Assembly: GCA_964512695.1 (NCBI GenBank)
Contig: CAZEJU010000002.1
Location: 76,233 to 140,232, forward strand
Source: an uncultured Gammaproteobacteria bacterium
Lineage (GTDB): Bacteria; Patescibacteriota; Microgenomatia; Levybacterales; UBA12049
Length of the DNA stretch: 64,000 nucleotides
Direction: 5' to 3'
The position numbers were made by a program, and so were the translations under genes. This document shows positions 44,115-63,939 of this stretch, one piece after another (the stretch's first letter is position 1; the number at the start of each line of letters is the position of its first letter). The notes below the pieces were generated by a model. It was given only the letters and a program-made list of their open reading frames with translations, searched no databases and was not told the DNA's origin.

Positions 44115-44552
44115 CTATATCCAATTTGATTCAGAAAAAATTATGTTTTTTTTGTAGCTTTTTATCGCATCTTTTACATAAGGGAGCATTTTATTAGGGA
44201 GATTATTAATGGGAAACCACTGCATATCATCACATTTATCAGGTTCTGTGATATGCGGCTCTCCTTTCCATGTATCTGCAAGAAGGAAAAAGTCTATATA
44301 TTCGACATCGGACATTCTATGCATCACATGGACAACACGTACATTTTTCTTTTTAATAGTTATCCCGGCTTCTTCTCTCGCTTCCCGTATCATAGCTTGC
44401 GTTACCGTTTCATTTCCATCTAAGTGTCCAGCAATGAGACTGTAGTATCCATCTTTCCATCCGGTATTATATCGACGGATGAAGAGAACATTTTCCTCTT
44501 TAATAAGTAGTAAGTATACTGCAACTCGTAGTGTATGACGAGGCTCGCCCAT
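44115..44552 (-). CDS. Nudix hydrolase
   Basis: Nudix box 'GHLDGNETVTQAMIREAREEAGI'. Confidence 0.75.
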   Translation of the reverse strand: MGEPRHTLRVAVYLLLIKEENVLFIRRYNTGWKDGYYSLIAGHLDGNETVTQAMIREAREEAGITIKKKNVRVVHVMHRMSDVEYIDFFLLADTWKGEPHITEPDKCDDMQWFPINNLPNKMLPYVKDAIKSYKKNIIFSESNWI

Positions 44553-44680: not shown

Positions 44681-44934
44681 ATGTGGACTGTATACGTCTT
44701 ATACAATCAGGCAAATCAAAAGATATATATTGGCGTAAGCGCTAATATCGAACAAAGATTAAAGGAGCATAATGTAAAAATAGCAAATCATTATACGATA
44801 CGGCTAAATTTTAAGGGATTTGGGTGTTAATATATAAAGAAGAAATTAATAATAAAAAAGACGCTTTGGTACGAGAAAAGCAACTTAAAAGTTTTAGAGG
44901 TAGAGAATTTATTAAAAAATACATTCCCCTGTAG
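44681..44934 (+). pseudogene. GIY-YIG (UPF0213) nuclease gene interrupted by a +1/-1 frameshift near 44825-44832, ending inside the tRNA
   Basis: Frame A reads 'MWTVYVLYNQANQKIYIGVSANIEQRLKEHN...'. Frame B reads '...IYKEEINNKKDALVREKQLKSFRGREFIKKYIPL*'. Together they reconstitute a typical about 85-aa GIY-YIG protein. Confidence 0.5.
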
Positions 44935-44996
44935 CTCAACGGTAGAGCAGGAAGCTGTTAACTTCAAGGTTCGTGGTTCGAATCCACGCGGGGGAG
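44925..44996 (+). tRNA. tRNA-Asn (anticodon GTT)
   Basis: Hand-folded cloverleaf. Acceptor TCCCCTG/CGGGGGA, D-arm GCTC-AACGGTA-GAGC, anticodon loop CTGTTAA, T-arm CGTGG-TTCGAAT-CCACG. The 5' end resembles E. coli tRNA-Asn. Confidence 0.75.
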
Positions 44997-46565
44997 CAAG
45001 TTCGTTCTTAATATAACTGCCTGTTGGTCAATTAACTCCTGGACAAGCGGAGAATAGACCGTATTAGCAATCTTTTTGTCGTGTACCTCCAGCTTCTCAA
45101 AGAAAAACCGGAGATAACTTTTTTTCAGAAAATCAGGTGCTTCTTTGTACGCTTTCGGAATATCACGGGTCAGTGCGAGTACTTCTTCCAATAAGTCGAA
45201 ATCAAATTTCCTGCTACTTTCAAGTTTTGCTAGTTCCTTATCTACATTCTTAATTTTTTCCTCAACCTCATCACGCAGTCGGCGATTAGCTTCTCTATTG
45301 AACAAAGCATTTGAAAACACGTCCTCCTCAAGAATTCTTCTCCTCCTTATCAGTCCCGCTCTTTCATTCAAATATCCTTTTCGGACTTTTGACTCCTCCT
45401 TATCTCTGTCATTCAGATACCTTCTCACTTTCGCAGTAAGTGCATCAGTGAAACCTTTTGTGAACTTAATACCTCTGAAATGACTGGCAACTTTGTTTTC
45501 AAGGTCGTCTGCCTCCACATAAGGAGCTTTGCAGGGCTTTCTTTTCTGACAATGATAGTAATGTACTGTATCCCTTTTTTTCGAATGAGCAGGGTGCGGT
45601 TCGGCGGTATATCTGAGACCGCAGTCAGCACAGAAAATAATGCCTCTTAACAGATAGTCATACTTTCTTTCTCTTATGGCGAATCCTCTGTGTTTGGCCA
45701 GTATCACCTGACACAAGTCAAAAAGCGGTTTGGATATCAAGGGTTCATGATTACCCATTCGTTCTCTGTTGTTTGTCTCCTGTTTCATCAGACCGTAATA
45801 GAAAGGATTAGTAAGAATCTGCTGAATAGTGCTGTGAGCTAAGGGTTTTCCGTTGACTGTCGTCAGTCCTTTGGTATACATGAACAGCCCGAGCCTTTTT
45901 ACTGAGTACTTGCCTGTAGCGAATCTTTTGAATACTTCTTTCATGAGTGGTCCGTGAATCGGGTCAACTTCAATGGGTAAGGGTTTTCTCGGAAGGGAAT
46001 CTATGTATTGCTGTCTCTCTGGCGTGCGTTTCTTACCCGCGATTCTACCTTCCTTGTCGATATTCAGATATCCGTAAGTTACACCAGTCGGATACCAGCC
46101 GTTATTCCATCTGGTATCTAAGCCTCGCTTTGTCTTTCTGCCTAAGTCCCGTGAGTAGAATTCATTAATTCCCGCCATGAAAGTGTCCAACAATCTTCCT
46201 TCCGGGCTTTCATCCAACATCGGCTGAACAACGGAAATTAGCCTTGTTCCTGCTTTTTTGAGCTGTTCCTTGATAAGAAAATGGTCTGTGGCATTTCTGG
46301 CGAAACGGTCAGTGTTGTAGACAATTATGGCTCCTACTTTCCTGGTGTCAATTTGTTCAAGCATTTTCAGAAACTCGGGTCGATTGGAGACTGTGGCACT
46401 TTGTCCTTCGTCTTTGAATGTTTCCAATATTTCATACTCTAATTCGTGAGCTTTCTTGGTACATATATCTGTTTGAGCTTCAATGGAGTACCCTTCCTTG
46501 GCTTGTTCCTCCGTACTTACTCTGCAGTAGATGAAACATGTTTTCTGGTCGTTATTCATATTCAT
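44964..46565 (-). mobile_element. Large serine recombinase (integrase) whose last about 11 codons are encoded by the tRNA-Asn 3' half
   Basis: N-terminal resolvase domain 'CFIYCRVSTEEQAKEGYSIEAQ', a recombinase domain, a Cys-rich zinc ribbon 'CADCGLRY...HYYHCQKRKPC', and a coiled-coil. Codon usage is distinct. Confidence 0.75.
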
Positions 46566-50014: not shown

Positions 50015-50111
50015 ACATGCGTTATTTTCAGCCTCAAAGCTGTCTGAATCTTAACACATTGTGACTGTGAGTCGCAAGACTCCCAGTCACATTCTTAGTA
50101 CATTTTGGAGT

Positions 50112-50366
50112 ATGGGACGAACTAATAAGTCATTTCCCGTAGACCAAAAAGACAAGGCGGTGTTACAGAAAAAGTTCGGTAAGAGACTCGCTGAAATAAG
50201 AACTGAGAAAGGGATCACTCAGGAAGGGTTGTCGTTTGAAACAGGGGTCGACAGGACGTATATTAGCTATATTGAGCGGGGTGAGCGAAATCCATCACTC
50301 TTCATGCTTTGGAGACTTTCAAAAGCTCTTAAGATCAGGATTAACGAGCTGACGGATTTTCAGTAA
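50112..50366 (+). CDS. XRE-family helix-turn-helix regulator, a possible controller protein
   Basis: 'LAEIRTEKGITQEGLSFETGVDRTYISYIERGERNPSL'. Confidence 0.65.
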   Translation: MGRTNKSFPVDQKDKAVLQKKFGKRLAEIRTEKGITQEGLSFETGVDRTYISYIERGERNPSLFMLWRLSKALKIRINELTDFQ

Positions 50367-50448
50367 CATTCTTCCTTAATTTCATCTTTGTCAGAAGTGT
50401 GTCCTTCTTACGGTATAATTGAGACCGGTAAGGAGTGGAGTTACTCGC

Positions 50449-50868
50449 ATGGATGTTCATACAAAAGAACAAAGAAGCTATAACATGTCACGGGTGAAGT
50501 CGAAAAATACTAAGCCTGAATTATTAATGTTTTTGTTACTCGAAGAGGCCGGATATAAGTTTGAAAAACATTATCCGATTACGGGTAAGCCCGATATCGC
50601 ATTTCCCGAACACAAGGTTGCCGTGTTCATTGATGGAGAATTCTGGCATGGTAAGGATTACAAGCAGATAAGAGATTCCATTCCGCCTTTTTGGGTCAAA
50701 AAAATAGGAGAAAATCTTAAACGGGACGGGAGAAATATGAGAAAGCTAAGAAGTGAAGGCTGGCGTATTCTGCACTTTTGGGATAAGAAAGTGGTCAAAT
50801 ATCCTGAGAGGTCACTCCGAAGAATTACGCGGTTTCTTGAGCGTGTAAGAATCTCTGACGGAAAGTAG
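50449..50868 (+). CDS. vsr: Very-short-patch repair endonuclease
   Basis: 'MDVHTKEQRSYNMSRVKSKNTKPE' and 'VAVFIDGEFWHG'. Confidence 0.8.
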   Translation: MDVHTKEQRSYNMSRVKSKNTKPELLMFLLLEEAGYKFEKHYPITGKPDIAFPEHKVAVFIDGEFWHGKDYKQIRDSIPPFWVKKIGENLKRDGRNMRKLRSEGWRILHFWDKKVVKYPERSLRRITRFLERVRISDGK

Positions 50869-51955
50869 GAACAAGTTTCTTTGTCGTTTTCAATTCATTC
50901 ATCGATTTAAGAAGAGCATCGGCGGCTCTTTTTGCAAGCAAAGGCGGAACTGCGTTTCCTATCTGTTCGGCAATCTGGCCAAAATTGCCTATGAATTTGA
51001 AATCATCAGGAAAAGTCTGAAGTCGTGCAGCTTCACGAAGAGATATTGCTCTGTTTTGTTCCGGGTGTCCGAATCTTCCCTTTGAAATCATCGCACAACC
51101 TCCTGTCATTGTAGGTGATGGTTGGTCCCACCTCATTCTTCCGTATACGTCTTTGTGTCCCTTTGTATTTCGGTGACATTCGAGGACTAACTCATCAGGC
51201 CATGAAGTTCTGTCTCCACCATCGTGAGGGGTCAACATGAGTCTTTTCAGATTGATTTCGGCGAGACTGGCGGAAGCATGCATGGCGTCATCCGGGTGTT
51301 TCTCGCCAGCCTGAATTTTGGGCAAGTCGTTGATGGCTTCTCTTACCGTATTCCAAGCTGGTAAATCATCAGAAGTTGCCGGGTCAATGTTGGTCTTAGA
51401 AGGAAAAGATAGCCTGATATCCGAATTATTAGTGCCCATAAGGACGAGCCTCTTTCTTCTCTGAGGAACGCCGTAATCGGCCGTATTCACAACGTCGTAG
51501 ACTGTCTGATACCCCAGCTCATGAAGTTTCTGCAGTATTTGAAGAAAGAGAGGTTTCCCGATTCCCGTCGCAAGCCCCGGAACGTTTTCAAGAACGAAAG
51601 CAAGCGGCTTAATTTCTTCAACAATTCTCAGGAATTCATATATCAGTTTGTTTCTCGGGTCTGTTAATCTTTGTGAGTTTCTCCTGGCACTCGAAAACCC
51701 CTGACAGGGAGGACAAGCGATGAGAACCACCTGTTTTCCGTTTTTGAATCCTCCCGCTTTCAACAGCTCCTTACCTGACAGATAAGAGATGTCTGACGGG
51801 AATACGGCACAGTCGGGAAAGTTTGCCTTGAATGATTCGGATGCGTTTTTGTCGATATCAACGGCAACTTTGATATCAAAACCAGCTTGCTGAAAGCCTA
51901 ACGCCGAACCTCCGCAACCGGAAAAAAGGTCAATTACACCCAAGTTTCCCTTCAT
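50825..51955 (-). CDS. dcm: DNA (cytosine-5)-methyltransferase
   Basis: Motif I 'DLFSGCGGSALGF', motif IV 'PPCQGFS', motif VI 'ENV'. It is convergent with vsr and overlaps it by 44 nt. Confidence 0.85.
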   Translation of the reverse strand: MKGNLGVIDLFSGCGGSALGFQQAGFDIKVAVDIDKNASESFKANFPDCAVFPSDISYLSGKELLKAGGFKNGKQVVLIACPPCQGFSSARRNSQRLTDPRNKLIYEFLRIVEEIKPLAFVLENVPGLATGIGKPLFLQILQKLHELGYQTVYDVVNTADYGVPQRRKRLVLMGTNNSDIRLSFPSKTNIDPATSDDLPAWNTVREAINDLPKIQAGEKHPDDAMHASASLAEINLKRLMLTPHDGGDRTSWPDELVLECHRNTKGHKDVYGRMRWDQPSPTMTGGCAMISKGRFGHPEQNRAISLREAARLQTFPDDFKFIGNFGQIAEQIGNAVPPLLAKRAADALLKSMNELKTTKKLVPTFRQRFLHAQETA

Positions 51956-52112
51956 GATAATAATATATCATTTTTCGCCCGGTCGCTGTCGGGGTTTTTT
52001 GAAGAGTGTATATACTCATTCATTCCGTGTTATATATTTTATAAGTGTTGACTACAGAATGAAAATATAGTATCCTTTGTTCCAGCAAATCGGTCTAAAT
52101 ACTGAAATTAAT

Positions 52113-52340
52113 ATGAAAACAGGCGAAACAAAAGGTGCGGCTTTCAAAAGGCTCGCTTCCAACAGAACGAATAACGCAATCAGGAACATCAAACTTCTGG
52201 GTAATTTGTCCAACAAACATAATTACTCCTACTCCGAAGAGGACTTCAAACGAATTTTCAACAGCGTCGAACATGAACTTAAACTGGCAAAATCGAAATT
52301 TCTTATCTCGCTGAGTAAGAGTAAGAAATTCAAACTCTGA
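52113..52340 (+). CDS. Small basic hypothetical protein, first gene of the candidate operon
   Basis: ATG at 52113. The track's 52077 start is a TTG. Confidence 0.35.
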   Translation: MKTGETKGAAFKRLASNRTNNAIRNIKLLGNLSNKHNYSYSEEDFKRIFNSVEHELKLAKSKFLISLSKSKKFKL

Positions 52341-52363: not shown

Positions 52364-53014
52364 ATGAAAATGAAAAAAGATATAACATCACTGAAGCTCA
52401 CAAGACCACAGAAGATTCTCGTAACACTGTATCAACTTTCCGACGGTACTAATAAACAGGTCAGGTTCGAAGATATAGCAGTAGGCGTTTATAAGAACTT
52501 CACTTCCGATTTTCAGCTAAGAGGTTATCCTCAATACCCTGATACGGGTGATATTGTACATAAACCGCTGTATAGCGAATTGAAAAAAGGCGGATATGTA
52601 TTATCCGGCAATAAGTACTTTTCCCTTACTCCGAAAGGAATTGCGTACGCCAAAAGACTGCTCCGCGTTTCAGAGAAAGAAACCGAACCGGGTAAAACCG
52701 CTTCAGTGAAACTTACGGCAGACCAGCAGAAAGAGCTTGACAGATTGAAATCTTCAAAGGCTGTTGAGTTGTTTCTTAACGGCAAGAAAGAGGATATTCT
52801 TGATATAGACTTCTATTCCTATCTGGAAGTTACAGTGAGGACGGGTAAGAATGACTTTCTGGGAAGACTTCGCACGGTAGAAGACGCCATTAATGCTACA
52901 AAAAACAGAAGTGACACGCTGTACAAAAAGCTGAGAGAATGTCACGAGTATCTTCTTGAAAGATTCAGAGGAAACATTGATTTCGTAAGGAACAGCAAAG
53001 GAGGTAAGAGGTAA
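52364..53014 (+). CDS. Putative winged-helix DNA-binding protein, 216 aa
   Basis: 'RPQKILVTLYQLSDGTNKQVRFEDIAV...GGYVLSGNKYFSLTPKGIAYAKRL' is PadR/MarR-like. Its stop overlaps the next start. Confidence 0.4.
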   Translation: MKMKKDITSLKLTRPQKILVTLYQLSDGTNKQVRFEDIAVGVYKNFTSDFQLRGYPQYPDTGDIVHKPLYSELKKGGYVLSGNKYFSLTPKGIAYAKRLLRVSEKETEPGKTASVKLTADQQKELDRLKSSKAVELFLNGKKEDILDIDFYSYLEVTVRTGKNDFLGRLRTVEDAINATKNRSDTLYKKLRECHEYLLERFRGNIDFVRNSKGGKR

Positions 53015-54858
53015 TGGCAACGACAATACAAATGAAAATTAAGGAAGAGCAGAATGTCTATCATGACAACATTCTTGATATTTGGGGTAATGACTTCAAT
53101 TTCAGTCATGAAAAGGGTTTGGCAGAATGGCTTAAGAATTCAGTAGACGCATACCGCAGAGTCGGGGCTGCCGACAAAGACCAATACATTATCTTCCGTT
53201 TCACTGACGGTACTCAGACGACACCTCCAGTTATTGAGTGCATTGATTTCGTGGGAATGGAATTGGTTGATATTGAGAAGGCTTTCAAATGGTGGGGTGA
53301 CCCTGATGCGGCAAAAAGAGGTCAAAAAATTAAGGTATTCGGCGGTCATGGAAACGGCGGAAAGTTCTATATGCGTCAGATGTTTCTGCAATCACATTTT
53401 GTGACATACAGGCAGGGAAAAATTAACGTCTTCGGATTCAATGAAAACAGGAAGTATGGTTTTGCAGAAGGATATAAGGACAAAAAAGTTACACTTGATG
53501 AAGCCCTGAAGATAGCCGGGATAGAAAGGTCAACTATTCCCAATGCGGTTTTGCGTCAACTTGAACACGGAGAGACTGGGTTTACTGTTGTCAAAGGAAT
53601 CAGACCGAAAAAAGTCGTCGGTAGGAGTCTTCCCGTATTCAGAATATGTGACAAGCTGAAGTATCATCCTCAGGCAAGAAGTCCTCTTAAGTTCAGTAAT
53701 GTATCCGTTATCCATAACGGCAAGATAATTGCGAACGGCCTGAGAATGGAAGATATCGAACCGCTTGAAGGTTTTGAAGGACCGTTCTTTTTTGAGATTC
53801 CCGACGAAATAGATTCCATAGCGGACGGAGAAACAGGAAAGAAAGTGAATATGTATGACAAGAGGTATGGGAAAGGCAGTCTGGTATTAAAAACTTCATC
53901 TCTTCCTTTCGGTCGCGGAGGTAGAAAACCTGAGCTGAATTGTATTGATATTGTCGGTGAAATCGGTGTTATTGCTTCATATAACATGCAACAGATAGGC
54001 TTTCTCCGATACTTCCCTCAGGCTCAATATATATATGGAGAGTGCTCATGTCCCATTCTTGAAGACCCGGAATATGATTGTGTTCAGAATGACAGAGAAA
54101 GACTTGTCGATAATGAAAAAACAGCAGCTCTCCTTCAATGGATTGCAAGAAGAATAGATGAAGTGGCAGGCAAGATTGCCGATAATGAAGCGAAGGCGGA
54201 AGAAGCTGAGAATATAAGAGCTACAGACGAGTTTAATCAGATTCTCAATAAGTGGAAGAATCAGTTTATGTCGAAGCTGTTTGCTGAGGTCTTGGGCGGT
54301 ACGGGAAAAGGAGATTCTACCGGTGGTCAGGGTGACGAAGGCTCAGGTGGCGGCACGAAGAAAGAATCAAAAGACAAGGACGGATTAGGCTCAGGAGCCG
54401 GTAAGGGTGGCGGAGAAGGAGATGAGAAGAAGAAAGGTTCAAGAGCACCCCTTGTACTTTTGTCCGGACAGGAAGACCCGGAATTTCCCGGTATGCCTGT
54501 AACTTTTTCTGACAGACATTTCGCTGTGGAACAAAGACAGCAGGATGTAGACAGAGGAATATATTGGATTAATCTTGAAAAGCCGATGGCGAAGAAGATA
54601 ATCGATAAGTACGGAGTTGACTCTCCGAGGTGGAGAAACTATTTATTCCAGAGATATGTTGACATATTTACAAAGGAAACATTGTATCGTCTGGCAAAGA
54701 AGGAAGGAGGCTCTCTTACGCCCGAACAGGCTGACTACGAAATAATGCGTGTGTCATCTCTTGTATATGATAAGGCCACAATCGACCTTGAAGATTTTCT
54801 TCTGAGCGAGAGATACAATTCAGGCAAGAATAATGAAAATGAATCCGAACAATCATGA
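53014..54858 (+). CDS. GHKL/MORC-like ATPase with a Gly/Lys/Asp-rich linker
   Basis: Bergerat N-box 'AEWLKNSVDA' (ExxxNxxDA) and G2-like 'FGGHGNGGKFY'. Low-complexity stretch 'GGTGKGDSTGGQGDEGSGGGTKKESKDKDGLGSGAGKGGGEGD'. Confidence 0.55.
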   Translation: MATTIQMKIKEEQNVYHDNILDIWGNDFNFSHEKGLAEWLKNSVDAYRRVGAADKDQYIIFRFTDGTQTTPPVIECIDFVGMELVDIEKAFKWWGDPDAAKRGQKIKVFGGHGNGGKFYMRQMFLQSHFVTYRQGKINVFGFNENRKYGFAEGYKDKKVTLDEALKIAGIERSTIPNAVLRQLEHGETGFTVVKGIRPKKVVGRSLPVFRICDKLKYHPQARSPLKFSNVSVIHNGKIIANGLRMEDIEPLEGFEGPFFFEIPDEIDSIADGETGKKVNMYDKRYGKGSLVLKTSSLPFGRGGRKPELNCIDIVGEIGVIASYNMQQIGFLRYFPQAQYIYGECSCPILEDPEYDCVQNDRERLVDNEKTAALLQWIARRIDEVAGKIADNEAKAEEAENIRATDEFNQILNKWKNQFMSKLFAEVLGGTGKGDSTGGQGDEGSGGGTKKESKDKDGLGSGAGKGGGEGDEKKKGSRAPLVLLSGQEDPEFPGMPVTFSDRHFAVEQRQQDVDRGIYWINLEKPMAKKIIDKYGVDSPRWRNYLFQRYVDIFTKETLYRLAKKEGGSLTPEQADYEIMRVSSLVYDKATIDLEDFLLSERYNSGKNNENESEQS

Positions 54859-56266
54859 CAATTCCATCCTGCCCGCACAGTTATCACTGCATAACACAAC
54901 TTCGAATACCGGAGCTGTTAATTATTTGTCAGAGAATGAAATATCCCTCCCTCCTTCTCTGAGTAATGACGACTCCATTGAAGTATTGGGTCTACCAATA
55001 AGACTGGAAAACGCTCTCAAAAATTCAGGAAATATCACGACAGTCGGACAGTTAGTTAATACCGCTGACGAAAAGTTGCTGAAGTTGAGGAATCTCGGTC
55101 ATAAGTCCGTCAACTATCTTATGCAGGTGAAATTGAAGATAGATGAAAAGTTCAGTACTCTCCAAAACAGAACACCCACAGAAATAACTGAGCAAAAACA
55201 AGAGGAAAAAATTATTCCTGTCAATCAACTCCTCAATTTGTTGCTCGATAGATGCGGTAGTGAAAGAGTCAAAGAAATAGTCAAAAGACGATACGGCCTT
55301 ATGGACGGAGAAAGACAAACTCTCGAAGAAATCGGTGAGCATTACGGAGTAACTAGAGAAAGAATCAGACAGATTCAAGTTAAGGCATTGAAGAGCATGC
55401 GACATCCGATTACTACAGCCAGGAAACCGATTACGGATATTATGGAAACCATTCTGTTTCGGAATGGCGGAATAATTTCTGCTGAAGAAGCGGACACCAT
55501 AATTCCGGAAGCTTTCAGTGATACGGGTAACGACGGGAGTTCTGTGCTTGATTTACTTTGTGAATTGGGCTGGATTCAGAGCTGCAGAATCGGAGATATA
55601 GCAATATATTCACCGAAATTTGACGGTGTTTCTCTGTGCAAGTTGTCGGAAAAAATCACATTTCTGATTAAGAAACAGGATTTAGGGATTGACATTCCTT
55701 CAATATTCAAAGGTGTCAGTATGTTCAGAAGAATCAGAGACCAACGTTTCAATCCTCAGGACTTCGTTCTCAGATATTGCAGAATCGACCCTCGGATTGA
55801 AGAAATCGGACTTACATCAGCACAACCCGAAGTTTTTTTCAGGTACTATACAGTCGGTCATTTCGCTAAGAAGGGTTGGGTGGTTCTTATGACCAGAGTG
55901 TTGGAACAGGAACAAATGCCGTTACATTTCACTGAAATTGCAGATAAGGTAAATGACCTTCTGGGTAATTCTGAGAGGAGACTGGATGTAAGAAGAGCAC
56001 ATTCGATATTGATTGACGATGAAGCATTCGCTCACAGTGGTATTAACGGGACGTACGGTCTTACATCGTGGGGTTTGAGAAAAGATTCAACTGTCGAACT
56101 GGCAGAAGAGTGTCTGAGAAAAGCGGGGTTCCCGTTACATTGGAAGCAAATATTCAATTATGTGAGCAGGTATAAGAATACAAAACCGGGAAACATTACC
56201 AGTATTCTTGAAAATCATCGCAGATTCAAAAGAGTTGAATCAGGAATTTATTGGCTTAATGACTAG
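54833..56266 (+). CDS. Multi-HTH protein made of RNA-polymerase-subunit-like modules: alpha-CTD-like, sigma70 region-4-like, and two HARE-HTH-like domains
   Basis: 'IRLENALKNSGNITTVGQLVNTADEKLLKLRNLGHKSVNYL' resembles the RpoA CTD. '[41 protein letters not shown]' resembles sigma r4.2. 'PLHFTEIADKV...GTYGLTSW' and 'PLHWKQIFNYV...GIYWL' resemble HARE-HTH. It overlaps the upstream gene by 26 nt. Confidence 0.6.
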   Translation: MKMNPNNHDNSILPAQLSLHNTTSNTGAVNYLSENEISLPPSLSNDDSIEVLGLPIRLENALKNSGNITTVGQLVNTADEKLLKLRNLGHKSVNYLMQVKLKIDEKFSTLQNRTPTEITEQKQEEKIIPVNQLLNLLLDRCGSERVKEIVKRRYGLMDGERQTLEEIGEHYGVTRERIRQIQVKALKSMRHPITTARKPITDIMETILFRNGGIISAEEADTIIPEAFSDTGNDGSSVLDLLCELGWIQSCRIGDIAIYSPKFDGVSLCKLSEKITFLIKKQDLGIDIPSIFKGVSMFRRIRDQRFNPQDFVLRYCRIDPRIEEIGLTSAQPEVFFRYYTVGHFAKKGWVVLMTRVLEQEQMPLHFTEIADKVNDLLGNSERRLDVRRAHSILIDDEAFAHSGINGTYGLTSWGLRKDSTVELAEECLRKAGFPLHWKQIFNYVSRYKNTKPGNITSILENHRRFKRVESGIYWLND

Positions 56267-56274
56267 TGATATAT

Positions 56275-58680
56275 ATGGACATACAGAAAATTAAAATTAA
56301 GAGCGATTATAAATTAGCGGATATCGTTCATGATATTGAAAAAGGAATCTTGAGGATTCCTCAATTCCAGAGAGAGTTTGTGTGGGATAAGCCCCGGGTC
56401 ATCAAACTTCTGGAAAGTATCTATCTTGAATACCCGATTGGGTCTTTTTTCTTCTGGGACGCTCCGCGAAAGTATTACGACTTCTATCGTGATATCGCTG
56501 AGTTGGGTCTTCCCAAGCCCGATAGGTACGAAAAAATTGTTTTCATTCTCGACGGTCAACAGAGGCTTACTTCCCTCTATGTTACGGTCAAAGGGTTGAC
56601 GCTCTACAGTAGGGATTACAAAAAGATTTGTTTTGACCTGGATGAAAAAATATTTGTTGACAGAATACCTGACAATCAGAGATTCGTTTCTGTTTCAGAT
56701 TTACTATCGAATGACCGATTTGATGTCTATGAACGACTTACGGTTGAGCGAAAGAAATCATTCAACGAATGCTATCAGCGATTCAATAATTATCCTTTCT
56801 CAGCGATTGATGTCCGGGACAAGGAACTTGATGAGGTCTGTGACATCTTTGAGCGTATCAACCAGGGAGGACAGAGACTCAATTTGTTTGACCTCATTTC
56901 AGCAAGCACTTGGACTCCCGAGTTTGACTTAAGGTTTGCGGTCAAGAAAGAGAATGACAATCTGAAGACAAAGGGCTTCGGAGATATTGATAATGAAGTC
57001 TTTCTTCAAACACTTTCCCTTATCGCCAAGGGTTCATGTACGAGACCTGTCCAATTACAATTAAGGGCCGAAGACGTTAATAAGTTCTGGCAGGAGACAG
57101 TCAATTCAATGTCTCTGGCAATTGATTATCTGAAGAACAACTTAGGGGTGGTCAATTCGGTGTTCATTCCGTACAGAAGTATGATAGCTGTTGTTGCTTA
57201 CCTGTTCTCTGTCAACAAAGGCAGGAGTCTGAATCACGAGCAGTCAGAGCTATTGTCCCAATGGTTCTGGCAGACTACGTTTTCAGAGCGGTACGGAGCT
57301 TCAATTCTGACGTTAATGACCGAAGACAAAAAATTAATGGACAAAATAGCTTCAGGAACTGATATCAGCGTTAAGTATCCGTTTTCGTTGGATATTGATT
57401 CACTTATTCAGGTGAGAATGTATCGAAAGTCGGCTGTTAAAAACGGCATTCTGTGCCTGTTGGCTAAGAGAAACCCCAGACATTTCAAAAACAATGTCCC
57501 TCTTCTGCTCAAAGACGGATATTATTCAGATTTCAACAATTCAGAGAAACATCATATTTTTCCTAAGGCGATTGTTCAGAAGAAGTTCCCTATGGTCATG
57601 GTACATTCACTCCCAAACTTCTGTTTCATTCCTGCGGAACTTAATAAGGAGATATCAGACAAACAGCCGAGCAAGTATTTTGAAGAGTATTTGAGTATAA
57701 ACCCCGACTTTGAAGATACTCTCAGAACCCACCTGATTAAGTACGATGATTCAATCAGACAGAACGATTTCATGTCTTTTCTGGCTTCAAGAGCGGCGAT
57801 GATTCTTGAGGAAATAACGAGAGCTACCGGTTCAAAAATCAGTCGGGTAGTAGCAGATAACGTTAACAAGGCGATAGATGATACTGAGAAGAAACTGCGT
57901 GACTTCATAGATAAGCAATTATCCTTAAATAATACTGATTATTGGAAAACATCAGTACCGAGCGATGTTGTCGGAATAATGCGTCAGAGAGTCAATCAAT
58001 ATCTGTCCAAAGACCCTTCAAAGATAATCAGCGATTTCAGTTCAAGGGACTTACTCGACTTCTGTGACATTATGGATTATTCAAAAATGGTCATCTCAAA
58101 CTGGAACATATTTTCAACTTTTTTCAGGTCGAAGATTGAAACTGAGAAAAGATTTTTGAATCTGAAAGAGTTCAGAAACGCAGTCAAACATACAAGAGGA
58201 GAGATTGTTCCTTTCATTCAGAAAGAAGGAGAAGCGGCTCTGGAATGGCTATCAATCATTCTTGGTGAAGTCAGAAAAAAGGGAGAGGAAAGAGCTTCAG
58301 TTACAGAGACCGACGAACAAACCATTAACAGGGTTGAATCGGAGTTTGTCAAACATATGGTCAAAGGAATACCTCAATGGATTGAAAACGATTACCCTGA
58401 AGGAACCAGTTCAATAGTGAAGTTGGTGGGCGGTACGGGTTCTGACCATTACATAAAAACAAACAGCAGAACAGCTATCTGGTATTATTTCGCTAAACAA
58501 TGGGTGTTCATGGAGTTGAAGGATGCGACTGTTGAAGAAGCTAAATTGTTGAGGGAAAGGATTTCAAAGCCCGAGTCAATATTAGAAAAGCAAAACGGTG
58601 CCGTCAGATTTCATCTGATGAATGATAATGATTTGAAGGTGGTAACGGACATTATAAGAATCAGAGCTAATAACGGTTGA
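56275..58680 (+). CDS. GmrSD-family-like nuclease: DUF262 (ParB-like) plus DUF1524 (His-Me finger) plus a C-terminal extension with a HEPN-like RNxxxH motif
   Basis: 'IPQFQREFVWD' and 'LDGQQRLTSLYV' are DUF262 motifs. 'SEKHHIFPKAIV' is DUF1524. 'EFRNAVKHTRGE' is an Rx4H motif. ATG at 56275; the track start 56266 is a GTG. Confidence 0.65.
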   Translation: MDIQKIKIKSDYKLADIVHDIEKGILRIPQFQREFVWDKPRVIKLLESIYLEYPIGSFFFWDAPRKYYDFYRDIAELGLPKPDRYEKIVFILDGQQRLTSLYVTVKGLTLYSRDYKKICFDLDEKIFVDRIPDNQRFVSVSDLLSNDRFDVYERLTVERKKSFNECYQRFNNYPFSAIDVRDKELDEVCDIFERINQGGQRLNLFDLISASTWTPEFDLRFAVKKENDNLKTKGFGDIDNEVFLQTLSLIAKGSCTRPVQLQLRAEDVNKFWQETVNSMSLAIDYLKNNLGVVNSVFIPYRSMIAVVAYLFSVNKGRSLNHEQSELLSQWFWQTTFSERYGASILTLMTEDKKLMDKIASGTDISVKYPFSLDIDSLIQVRMYRKSAVKNGILCLLAKRNPRHFKNNVPLLLKDGYYSDFNNSEKHHIFPKAIVQKKFPMVMVHSLPNFCFIPAELNKEISDKQPSKYFEEYLSINPDFEDTLRTHLIKYDDSIRQNDFMSFLASRAAMILEEITRATGSKISRVVADNVNKAIDDTEKKLRDFIDKQLSLNNTDYWKTSVPSDVVGIMRQRVNQYLSKDPSKIISDFSSRDLLDFCDIMDYSKMVISNWNIFSTFFRSKIETEKRFLNLKEFRNAVKHTRGEIVPFIQKEGEAALEWLSIILGEVRKKGEERASVTETDEQTINRVESEFVKHMVKGIPQWIENDYPEGTSSIVKLVGGTGSDHYIKTNSRTAIWYYFAKQWVFMELKDATVEEAKLLRERISKPESILEKQNGAVRFHLMNDNDLKVVTDIIRIRANNG

Positions 58681-62634: not shown

Positions 62635-63939
62635 TTGACTCATATGGGTGAAAGTTCTTCCACCATACAAGCAAATAAAGTACGTTTTGACAGTTTAGGT
62701 TATGGATATCAAGACACTCTCCCTCACCAACGTAGGAAAGAGACTATTCTGGACTTAGTGCGGGAAGCTATTAGACCAAGAGATATTTGGCTAAACCCGA
62801 AAGATCACACACTACGCGTTAGTGAAATTGGTATAGGCAACGGTTTTTTATCAGAAGGGTATAGAAGTATATTTGAAGGTCTCCCCTTCCCGACGAGTAT
62901 CACGGGAGTTGATTTAAACTCTACAATGTTGGCAGATCTACAAAAGAAAGGAATAATTGATATGGGTGTTTTAGCTCTAGCGGAGAAACTTCCCATGGCT
63001 GCTGAATCCCAAGATTTAGTAGTTATGTCAGAAGTATTAGAACATACCCGTACACCTCGATTTCCATTAGAAGAACTATACCGAGTTCTGAAACCTAGGG
63101 GGAAGTTTGTGGGAAGTGTTCCAAATATGGCTCAACTGTGGGATAGAATTGCTATGCTGAGCGGTGATGCCCCTCATCAAGTAGCACGAAAAATTGGAGA
63201 TCCAACTTTTACCCATGAGAGTCATTTTACGGTTAACTTACTGAAAGAAGCATTAAGAAAAGCTGGATTTACAGAAATAGAGATTAAGACCAATCTGGTT
63301 CGTCTATTACGTAAAGATGATGGAACTGCTTTTCCCTTTTTGAGTGAAATTATTAAAAATACTGCACCTGGACTAGGGGACAGGTTAATATGGACCGCAA
63401 GCAAACAAGGATCACCATTATTATCTGAGGGTGGTATTCCTACTTTGTATCTGGTATCTGGATCACCTAGAACTGGTAAATCAACTTTATCTCATACATT
63501 GTCTCAAAAAAAAGATATAGATATCGTGAGTATTACTGATATAAGATCTCAGCAGACGAGTGGTGATCCTAAGTTTGTTCCTCAAGAATTGGAAGAAGCA
63601 TATGTATCTTCGGTTGATATAATAAGAGATCTTTTGCAAAGTGGACAGAGTGCTATTTGGGAAGGCACATTCAGAAGTAGAGAAAGCCGAGAAAAAATAA
63701 AATCTCTAATAAGAAGATGTCCTAGTGGCTATAGAATCATTCCCATTGAGTTGAGAGCGTCAAGTGATATTATAGCTAGACGTGTGGAAGCAACTCAAAA
63801 AGAACATTTAGATAGGGATGTGACACCGCAGAGAGCTGTGCAACTTAGCGAATCCCATCCACAGCTTCCCGGTGCTTTTGTCTATGATACATCAGCAATG
63901 TCGGTTGAAGACATTGTAGGATCAGTGCTGAAGATATAG
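62635..63939 (+). CDS. Fusion protein: class I SAM-dependent methyltransferase plus P-loop kinase/NTPase
   Basis: MTase 'VVMSEVLEHTRTP...LKPRGKFVG'. Walker A 'LVSGSPRTGKSTL'. Confidence 0.55.
   Translation: MTHMGESSSTIQANKVRFDSLGYGYQDTLPHQRRKETILDLVREAIRPRDIWLNPKDHTLRVSEIGIGNGFLSEGYRSIFEGLPFPTSITGVDLNSTMLADLQKKGIIDMGVLALAEKLPMAAESQDLVVMSEVLEHTRTPRFPLEELYRVLKPRGKFVGSVPNMAQLWDRIAMLSGDAPHQVARKIGDPTFTHESHFTVNLLKEALRKAGFTEIEIKTNLVRLLRKDDGTAFPFLSEIIKNTAPGLGDRLIWTASKQGSPLLSEGGIPTLYLVSGSPRTGKSTLSHTLSQKKDIDIVSITDIRSQQTSGDPKFVPQELEEAYVSSVDIIRDLLQSGQSAIWEGTFRSRESREKIKSLIRRCPSGYRIIPIELRASSDIIARRVEATQKEHLDRDVTPQRAVQLSESHPQLPGAFVYDTSAMSVEDIVGSVLKI

Follow-up and report, generated by a model that had tools for sequence, protein, structure and literature searches.

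The 64-kb stretch of contig CAZEJU010000002.1 analysed here (the window) carries a C5-cytosine (m5C) DNA methyltransferase that is not an orphan enzyme: it is the DNA-marking arm of a conserved, unnamed gene cluster organized around a MORC-like ATPase, and the cluster probably acts as a restriction-modification (R-M)-like defence without a recognisable core nuclease. In the reading that we favour, with a probability of about 0.58, three neighbouring genes encoding a controller (C) protein, a Vsr very-short-patch repair endonuclease and the Dcm-type methylase constitute the modification arm of a MORC-type, methylation-coupled, R-M-like defence system, the other arm being an operon for proteins of 75 (s75), 216, 614 and 477 amino acids (aa), to which a swappable effector is attached. 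Gene content, catalytic motifs, the MORC-like fold, a C-box operator, synteny across phyla and the exchange of methylase classes are direct observations. Open reading frames (ORFs) of the window were checked against Pfam, NCBIfam, PADLOC (2.0) and PHROG, tRNAs were located by ARAGORN, and the 614-aa and 216-aa proteins were modelled with AlphaFold2 (AF2) and compared by Foldseek. A scan of one genome per species returned 187 loci; the best 80 of these 187 (L006-L085) are the sample for gene counts, with gene content established by searching the window proteins against six-frame ORFs. The 80 loci stem from more than 10 phyla, including groups of the candidate phyla radiation (CPR), Acidobacteria, Nitrospirae, Verrucomicrobia, Planctomycetes, Myxococcota, Solirubrobacterales, Ignavibacteria and others, and 44 of them have full flanks, that is, at least 4 kb on each side. 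Genes were counted as neighbours of the ATPase gene up to a distance of 3 kb (m5C methylase), 4 kb (Vsr) or 1.5 kb (homologues of the 477-aa protein).

The methylase (376 aa, 50825-51955, minus strand) matches PF00145 (1.8e-71; 241.7 bits versus a curated cutoff of 22) and TIGR00675 (2.3e-60; 205 versus 100.65 bits), and motifs I (FSGCGG), IV (PPCQGFS), VI (ENV), VIII (QRR), IX and X (GNAVPP) are legible in its translation. Its length equals that of the orthologues in L008, L009, L086 and L088, and it is therefore regarded as intact. An earlier interpretation of this DNA without database searches (the sequence-only reading) had named motifs I, IV and VI as clear, which they are, and had allowed for a pseudogene, which the enzyme is not; it had also located the genes for the XRE-type C protein, Vsr and methylase correctly. 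Its statement that no classical type II endonuclease is adjacent holds as well: known restriction endonuclease families were not detected by Pfam, PADLOC or NCBIfam in about 7 kb around the methylase or in the ORFs between 46.7 and 58.7 kb, and the locus lacks the cognate endonuclease adjoining the methylase that characterizes a classical type II R-M system. The solved structures closest to the methylase in sequence are catalytic domains of eukaryotic DNMT1 (6.6e-40), with 3g7u, M.HaeIII and M.HhaI ranking behind them. An assignment to Druantia II or DISARM was rejected, since the methylase matches the DruM and DrmMII models, yet the partner genes are absent; MADS was ruled out because it has no GHKL component.

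The association of the methylase with the operon is found well beyond the window. An m5C methylase lies near the ATPase gene in 56 of the 80 loci and in 33 of the 44 fully flanked ones, and Vsr is present in 40 of the 80. In Verrucomicrobia, Planctomycetes and Actinobacteria, the genes for reader (the 477-aa homologue), winged-helix protein (the 216-aa homologue), ATPase, methylase and Vsr follow each other in this order on one strand, with gaps of 0-12 nucleotides (nt) or overlaps. The identity matrices of methylase and ATPase are correlated (r = 0.78, Mantel p about 0.001). The synteny, the overlapping co-directional genes and the correlated divergence tie the methylase functionally to the downstream operon, a connection that the sequence-only reading had put forward as one of two options; the methylase that it described as orphan-looking is a regular component of a multi-gene system across phyla. 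Clear methylase replacements occur in L012 and L014, and such occasional swaps are expected because R-M modules behave in this way. The synteny is also observed in chromosomal, non-mobile contexts. Homologues of the ATPase family are absent from 50,697 phage genomes (INPHARED), and matches were found in 6 of 2.9 million viral contigs.

The class of the methylase can change while its partners remain. A distant subfamily of the ATPase and the winged-helix protein (26-34% identity) has the gene order [75-aa]-ATPase-winged helix and is found in the viral-contig loci L090-L093 and on a plasmid of Ensifer adhaerens. N6/N4 methylases stand beside this subfamily in L090, L092, L093 and on the Ensifer plasmid (TSPPF motif), an McrB-like AAA_5 protein stands beside it in L091, and Vsr is never present. 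Among the 80 loci, L064 likewise has an N6/N4 methylase adjoining the pair of winged-helix protein and ATPase. Because the distant subfamilies adjoin N6/N4 methylases and have no Vsr, the pair is tied to DNA methylation generally, with Vsr following m5C chemistry only. The Ensifer locus (L095, NZ_CP118613.1 59223-62548) is part of the conjugative plasmid pCTYH.Ch1_3 of a cultured strain, where three 'hypothetical' genes for 75, 800 and 229 aa are homologues of s75, the ATPase and the winged-helix protein, respectively; a TSPPF-type DNA methylase and an AAA ATPase are encoded nearby. In Ignavibacteria, the trio of reader, winged-helix protein and ATPase is found amid housekeeping genes. Four Ignavibacteria loci without methylase have a conserved ORF after the ATPase gene, in the slot usually taken by methylase and Vsr (L073:6640-7380, L078:5011-5745, L079:11798-12532, L081:11844-12134); its product comprises about 244 aa in three loci and 96 aa in L081, and the copy in L079 has weak HNH matches (HNH 6e-4).

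The central component of the cluster is the 614-aa protein (53014-54858, plus strand), which has no match in Pfam (up to E ≤ 10), NCBIfam, PADLOC or PHROG, and none among PDB sequences at E ≤ 1. Its AF2 model (predicted local distance difference test, pLDDT, 78) is most similar in Foldseek to Hsp90/TRAP1, MORC2/3/4 and SMCHD1 (1e-10 to 1e-8), in each case over the GHKL+S5 module. The alignment contains the Bergerat motifs, namely an E-x3-N-x2-D-A box, a D78/G81 box and a GGHGNGGK loop, and E38-x3-N42, D78, GGHGNGGK (110-117), T191 and R361 do not vary across 67 sequences, members of the distant subfamily among them. Model and motifs together identify the protein as a predicted GHKL+S5 ATPase with a MORC-like fold. 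A helix of 60 residues succeeds the S5 domain; beyond it, a Gly-rich linker (429-475) is disordered, and the C-terminal domain (about 479-600) is conserved. Residues 474-612 have no relative in PDB or Pfam at E ≤ 10. Two candidate nuclease sites in the ATPase were rejected: a beta-beta-alpha His-Me site (R501-H502...N520), where position 502 is H, Q or D across the 67 sequences, and a Cys/acidic cluster at 343-361, whose residues are not invariant in the same set. More than 800 homologues exist at 90% clustering, none of which is informatively named ('hypothetical protein' where a name is given); one of them (P0105) carries the JGI label 'ssDNA-specific exonuclease RecJ'. The ATPase family is small, self-contained and unannotated, since an exhaustive profile search of 1.84 billion representative proteins yields only 459 clusters (50% identity), with generic GHKL proteins staying out of its range.

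The ATPase gene is part of a sensor operon of five ORFs on the plus strand (75, 216, 614, 477 and 804 aa), joined by overlaps or gaps of a few nt. The operon is separated from the methylase gene by a divergent intergenic region (51956-52112) with promoter-like hexamers on both strands (TTGACT-17-TATCCT on plus, 52048-52076; TTTTCA-18-TAAAAT on minus, 52065-52036), which are consensus matches only, as promoter and terminator scans gave counts not above chance. The first gene encodes the conserved small protein s75 (75 aa, 52113-52340), which has no Pfam or PHROG match; homologues precede the 216-aa gene directly in 40 of the 80 loci and also occur in the distant ATPase subfamily and on the Ensifer plasmid. 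The 216-aa protein (52364-53014) consists of a winged helix and a helical C-terminal domain (AF2, pLDDT 81). Its gene adjoins the ATPase gene in 76 of the 80 loci, and the protein is an obligate partner of the ATPase. Foldseek returns weak matches to the winged helices of PadR, MukE/F and ORC and no nuclease fold; a role as nuclease or receiver domain was rejected on the basis of this winged helix plus helical bundle.

The 477-aa protein (54833-56266) is a putative multi-HTH (helix-turn-helix) DNA reader or sensor that combines the C-terminal domain of RNA polymerase alpha (alpha-CTD, 6.1e-12), sigma-70 region 4 (2.1e-13) and HARE-HTH (PF05066, 1.9e-5; 25.4 bits, just under the gathering threshold of 25.9). 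Among 14 members of its family, alpha-CTD and sigma region 4 are present in all 14 and HARE-HTH in 11 (best 2.7e-9). A homologue is encoded near the ATPase in 58 of the 80 loci. Readers of Parcubacteria have a DnaA C-terminal (domain IV) HTH (about 1e-21) beside sigma region 4 and alpha-CTD (L044:12077-13153, L056:12052-13329, L057:8098-9954); judged by these domain matches, the subunit appears as a collage of host promoter- and origin-binding modules. In 5 Solirubrobacterales loci (e.g. L060:8849-9343, L061, L067, L075), a small Mrr_N winged-helix protein (3.5e-15) precedes the 216-aa gene and replaces the reader with alpha-CTD, sigma region 4 and HARE-HTH.

The last gene of the operon, at most 9 nt from the 477-aa gene, codes for an accessory effector of 804 aa (56266-58680) with an N-terminal DUF262 domain (GmrSD_N 1.3e-31; BrxU 7p9k 2e-10) containing QREFVW and DGQQR motifs, an HHIFPK motif and a C-terminal Swt1-like HEPN domain with the motif RNAVKH (HEPN_Swt1 8e-5, below cutoff). 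DUF1524/GmrSD_C has no match in this protein at E ≤ 10, and the HHIFPK motif was recognised by eye only; the homologue in L037 has a GmrSD_C score of 0.036. The sequence-only reading had described the neighbours of the methylase as a GmrSD-like enzyme and a HARE-HTH protein. This stands for the DUF262/GmrSD_N part, does not extend to GmrSD_C, and places HARE-HTH marginally below threshold in the window protein. The suggestion that the GmrSD-like enzyme reads the methyl mark is not supported by the comparison: the gene is confined to the window clade and L037 (1 of 80 loci), and in the close relatives L088 and L001 its slot holds a DUF8370/8371 protein, or a trypsin-like protease and one other protein. 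The layout of L086 and L087 is exactly that of the window. As an accessory that can be swapped, the GmrSD-like gene does not rank among the conserved partners of the methylase.

Vsr is encoded opposite to the methylase. Its ORF (50419-50868, plus strand) opens at a TTG at 50419, with the likely start at an ATG at 50449, resulting in a protein of 139 aa (50449-50868; Pfam Vsr 3.4e-25). The TIGR00632 score is 117.8 bits versus a curated cutoff of 97.85, and the alignment with E. coli Vsr (1cw0, 5.5e-17) retains D51, F67, W68 and H69. The zinc site of the E. coli enzyme is formed by C66, H71, C73 and C117, and in the window clade E, a gap and K stand in place of C66, H71 and C117; the structural zinc site is hence lost from the window protein. 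About two thirds of the Vsr proteins of related loci keep the C/C/H ligand set. The favoured view of Vsr is that of the repair enzyme which commonly accompanies an m5C methylase, because it passes the curated threshold, keeps the four residues, is found with m5C methylases only and is sometimes fused to the methylase. The two genes overlap tail to tail by 44 nt (50825-50868), as had been recognised before, and an identical 44-nt overlap is found in L008, L009, L086 and L088. The convergent layout, which had been regarded as unusual in view of the co-directional E. coli pair, is a lineage-specific arrangement in CPR bacteria: the E. coli-like order occurs in 17 of the 80 loci, a further 3 have methylase-Vsr fusions, and a co-directional, overlapping methylase-Vsr pair is the commonest layout across the wider family. 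Each fusion is encoded by one ORF, 562-599 aa long across the four loci, that immediately follows the ATPase gene (L033:11861-13549, L034:11971-13686, L035:11887-13593, L089:9908-11707).

Upstream of Vsr, the C protein (84 aa, 50112-50366 with ATG at 50112, plus strand) is an XRE/HTH_3 protein (Pfam HTH_3 1.6e-16; PADLOC 'Control_protein' 3.2e-17). A double C-box, GACTgtgAGTC-gcaa-GACTcccAGTC (50063-50088), lies 23 nt upstream of its ATG. The two halves, side by side, are the sole GACTN3AGTC sites in the 64 kb, and the pair fits the PvuII-type consensus GACT-N3-AGTC-N4-GACT-N3-AGTC (Mruk et al. 2007, PMC2175313) at 16 of 16 symmetric positions. The operator is kept in the two closest relatives, L086 and L087, the sole change being within an N3 spacer. 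Taken together, protein and operator are those of a true PvuII-type R-M controller and point to expression that is timed after a transfer, in the manner of mobile R-M systems. Unusually, C is followed by Vsr rather than by a restriction endonuclease, so the co-transcription of controller and endonuclease known from such systems is not seen here, and a C gene precedes Vsr in few of the 80 loci only. The C-boxes, the 75-aa gene and the identities of the 216-aa and 614-aa genes are features beyond those given in the sequence-only reading.

The C-Vsr-methylase block and the sensor operon ride on a serine-recombinase island of roughly 14 kb (~13.8 kb, about 44.96-58.7 kb) at a tRNA-Asn gene; the host is probably a member of the Microgenomates (CPR). 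The tRNA-Asn (GTT, 44925-44997, plus strand) is the probable integration site and left edge, and is overlapped on the opposite strand by the 3' end, the last 34 nt, of the gene for the mobility enzyme, a large serine recombinase (533 aa, 44964-46565, minus strand; CcrB/XisF-type matches in NCBIfam). Since the C-terminal residues of the recombinase (...RVDSNHEP) are encoded by the tRNA-Asn sequence, the arrangement suggests that the end of the tRNA was rebuilt by integration. The right boundary (about 58.7 kb) is set by gene content and GC alone, with a GC content of about 0.41 in the island versus about 0.38 in the flanks. A copy of the tRNA-Asn 3' end or a convincing direct repeat was not found, and missing attachment (att) repeats are expected because the enzyme is a serine recombinase. 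Recombinases homologous to the one flanking the system in the window are also found in L001, L008, L009 and L088. The genes between 46.7 and 50.0 kb have no PHROG match, and the three longest ORFs there have no Pfam match. A phage origin was rejected, given island genes without PHROG matches, no INPHARED match and the few viral contigs noted above.

Across the loci, defence and mobile genes are found in or beside the operon, namely serine recombinases, Shedu, VapBC-like pairs, HNH, GmrSD-like and trypsin-like genes. This company, together with the C-boxes and C protein as a regulatory device typical of mobile R-M systems, is among the grounds for the defence reading. For example, a MazE/AbrB-type antitoxin and a PIN toxin (VapBC-like) are encoded in 8-9 non-CPR loci directly before the reader gene, with which they overlap (L073:1755-2380, L076:6787-7185, L023:8298-8921, L038 and L046 among them), and Shedu-type genes occur within a few kb in four loci (L006:11598-12785 and L053:7009-8139, assigned by Pfam SduA_C; L047:3493-4728 and L069:7818-9053, assigned by clustering). 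Fusions of ParB_N with an N6/N4 methylase recur in four other loci, e.g. L006:1924-3258.

Several known systems share parts of this composition, and the cluster itself has no entry in PADLOC 2.0. MORC/paraMORC GHKL+S5 ATPases were predicted in laterally mobile R-M operons together with cytosine methylases and Vsr (Iyer, Abhiman, Aravind 2008, PMC2292703), and the window ATPase resembles paraMORC in its GHKL+S5 architecture, its intact ATP motifs, its lateral mobility and its position beside cytosine methylase and Vsr; some paraMORC1 members are accompanied by HNH nucleases. It differs, with paraMORC1-5 compared by description, in that neither HATPase_c_3 nor another Pfam model matches its sequence (E ≤ 10) and in the lack of an SF2 helicase or RE-fold partner, no helicase family being among the recurrent neighbours. 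The window system has instead an obligate winged-helix partner, the 75-aa protein, the protein with alpha-CTD, sigma region 4 and HARE-HTH, and a distinct C-terminal domain. We therefore rate the cluster as a differing variant within the MORC/paraMORC R-M class predicted in 2008. Clusters of a C5-methylase, an RR-like protein (PF19192), a HEF_HK-HATPase_c_3 protein (PF19191) and Vsr (Bellieny-Rabelo et al. 2021, PMC8011034) follow the same grammar of m5C methylase, small partner, large GHKL protein and Vsr, but PF19192 and PF19191 do not match the 216-aa and 614-aa proteins at E ≤ 10, and the small partner is a winged helix rather than receiver-like. Experimental characterisation of a prokaryotic methylase-linked MORC-like ATPase was not found in the paper searches made for this analysis.

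The remaining comparisons concern single components. C-controlled type II R-M systems (PvuII and the convergent Esp1396I) share the HTH_3 controller, the perfect operator just upstream and a C operon converging on the methylase; they differ in that the gene after C in the window is Vsr and no type II endonuclease is present. E. coli dcm-vsr likewise pairs an m5C methylase with a Vsr carrying the same four residues, while in the window the genes are convergent with their 44-nt overlap, the zinc ligands are lost and the pair is part of a larger system. The alpha-CTD/sigma-4 stretch of the 477-aa protein resembles the middle of PglW of BREX type 2 (PADLOC 1.4e-12) and its sigma-4 region the C-terminus of MzaA of MZA (NCBIfam 2e-15). 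Conceptually, all of these systems consist of several proteins, are linked to methylation and lack an evident killing step. The scores are far under the family cutoffs, at 41 versus 990 bits and 57 versus 800 bits, respectively, and no kinase, PglZ, BrxC, Z1226 or Mza partner is present. With GmrSD/BrxU the 804-aa protein shares the DUF262 NTPase-like N-domain; it lacks a DUF1524 match, has HEPN appended and is encoded by a variable accessory gene.

We propose the following scheme for the defence system. The methylase would mark host sites, and the HTH proteins would scan DNA together with the ATPase. Upon encountering unmarked incoming DNA, the GHKL dimer would close around it in an ATP-dependent manner, and closure would either block the DNA directly (as in BREX or MORC) or license the attached effector, which in the window would be the DUF262 protein with its putative His-Me motif and HEPN domain. 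Vsr would merely repair T:G mismatches arising from deamination of 5-methylcytosine, and the C protein, once a new host has been reached, would autoregulate the operon of C and Vsr. A stronger version, which we consider unlikely, is that the core works without a nuclease, as an immune or silencing machine whose ATP-driven, MORC-type clamp is loaded by winged-helix and HARE-HTH readers on unmarked DNA, with entrapment or compaction instead of cleavage; if true, it would represent a prokaryotic counterpart of the eukaryotic partnership of MORC and DNMT in silencing, and possibly its source. In an extension of this version, the reader arrays of alpha-CTD, sigma region 4 and DnaA domain IV may, rather than just bind DNA, serve as decoys that detect phage proteins when these take over the transcription or replication of the host.

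A number of observations weigh against the methylation-coupled defence system. In 11 of the 44 fully flanked loci no m5C methylase is nearby, and in four inspected loci (Ignavibacteria, Solirubrobacterales) no methylase at all stands beside the pair; the trio thus also occurs where no mark is linked to it. The core has no conserved nuclease site: H502 differs between sequences, as does the Cys/acidic cluster, and no relative of the C-terminal domain could be detected. The C protein precedes Vsr and not the sensor operon, and a C-box upstream of the latter was looked for without success. All hosts are uncultured save that of the Ensifer plasmid.

Four other explanations were considered. The same genes could work in the positive direction, with a complex of HARE-HTH, winged-helix and MORC-like proteins binding the methyl mark in order to compact or silence methylated DNA or to regulate the island epigenetically; this would be the self-label of the sequence-only reading in its literal sense. 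HARE-HTH and the Mrr_N domain that replaces the 477-like protein in Solirubrobacterales are associated with the recognition of modified DNA, the ATPase has a MORC-like fold and eukaryotic MORCs likewise act in company with DNA methylation, DNMT1 domains are the best solved relatives of the methylase, and no core nuclease was found. Yet the pair stays in place while m5C and N6/N4 methylases are swapped, for which a rule that any mark means self is easier to envisage than a specific reader; some loci have no methylase, and the context is mobile and defence-island-like, with nuclease or protease effectors attached in the operon. We consider this reading improbable. The chance juxtaposition of an orphan or anti-restriction methylase (with Vsr and C) on a mobile element and an unrelated type IV-like module would account for the integrative island and for a methylase transcribed from the other strand, apart from the downstream operon. 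It is hardly credible in view of a synteny that recurs across more than 10 phyla, on chromosomes as well as in operons of overlapping, co-directional genes, and of the co-divergence of methylase and ATPase. The spread across phyla also argues against a sampling artefact from a single mobile element, and the near absence of the family from phage and viral sequences, together with the chromosomal synteny, speaks against the anti-restriction cargo that the sequence-only reading had offered as its other option.

The two further explanations centre on Vsr. It could be part of a repair kit in which the MORC-like ATPase substitutes for MutL and boosts very-short-patch repair for a mutagenic Dcm in lineages without MutL. 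E. coli MutL stimulates Vsr, and Dcm and Vsr are frequent companions of the ATPase. However, the pair of ATPase and winged-helix protein also occurs with N6/N4 methylases or with no nearby methylase, Vsr being absent in both cases; 16 of the 56 loci with an m5C methylase have no Vsr, and the large multi-HTH protein and the attached effectors are left unexplained. We rate such a kit as very unlikely. Alternatively, Vsr could be the working nuclease, activated by the MORC-like ATPase (as MutH or Vsr with MutL) to cut unmarked DNA, with the C protein controlling it as a toxic 'R' component. The C gene and C-boxes directly before Vsr take the normal position relative to a restriction gene, and the resulting C-'R' operon converges on M as in Esp1396I. 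Vsr is the sole nuclease that recurs with the core, an HNH nuclease fills the post-ATPase slot in the methylase-less Ignavibacteria loci, and the MutL-Vsr analogy was drawn in the 2008 analysis (PMC2292703). On the other side, the protein scores above the curated Vsr cutoff of NCBIfam and keeps its catalytic and intercalating residues, it occurs solely where the methylase is of the m5C class and never with N6/N4 enzymes, it is fused to the methylase in four loci, and a C gene upstream of it is rare. Vsr as an active restriction nuclease is thus quite unlikely in our judgement.

Outside the island, two ORFs of the window were characterized by eye only. An ORF to the left of the tRNA (44115-44552, minus strand) contains a Nudix-box-like motif, GHLDGNETVTQAMIREAREEAGI, and a 434-aa ORF (62635-63939, plus strand) resembles an S-adenosylmethionine (SAM)-dependent methyltransferase fused to a P-loop domain (GSPRTGKST). 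GATC is the most under-represented C-containing palindrome in the window (146 observed versus 218 expected per strand, z about -6.9), a depletion for which a GATC-specific R-M system of the host could be responsible. An attempt to derive the methylase target from palindrome avoidance, in which GATC ranked lowest, was dropped, as 64 kb cannot tie the depletion to the window enzyme.

Prokaryotic MORC-like ATPases linked to methylases were predicted in 2008 (PMC2292703); these ATPases are proposed ancestors of the eukaryotic MORC silencers. The locus described here defines a compact family that annotation has missed, comprising 459 clusters at 50% identity and occurring in no fewer than 187 species-level genomes; these span more than 10 phyla, among them many of the CPR. 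The family has fixed partners (the winged-helix protein, the small protein and the multi-HTH reader) and couples with interchangeable m5C or N4/N6 methylases. For experimental work, the homologue on the plasmid of cultured Ensifer adhaerens provides an entry point. With respect to annotation, 'orphan' Dcm-Vsr pairs beside hypothetical genes may be parts of larger systems. If the family is indeed a defence system, it would add a widespread mechanism in lineages beyond the reach of laboratory screens, one in which self-marking operates without an obvious paired nuclease.

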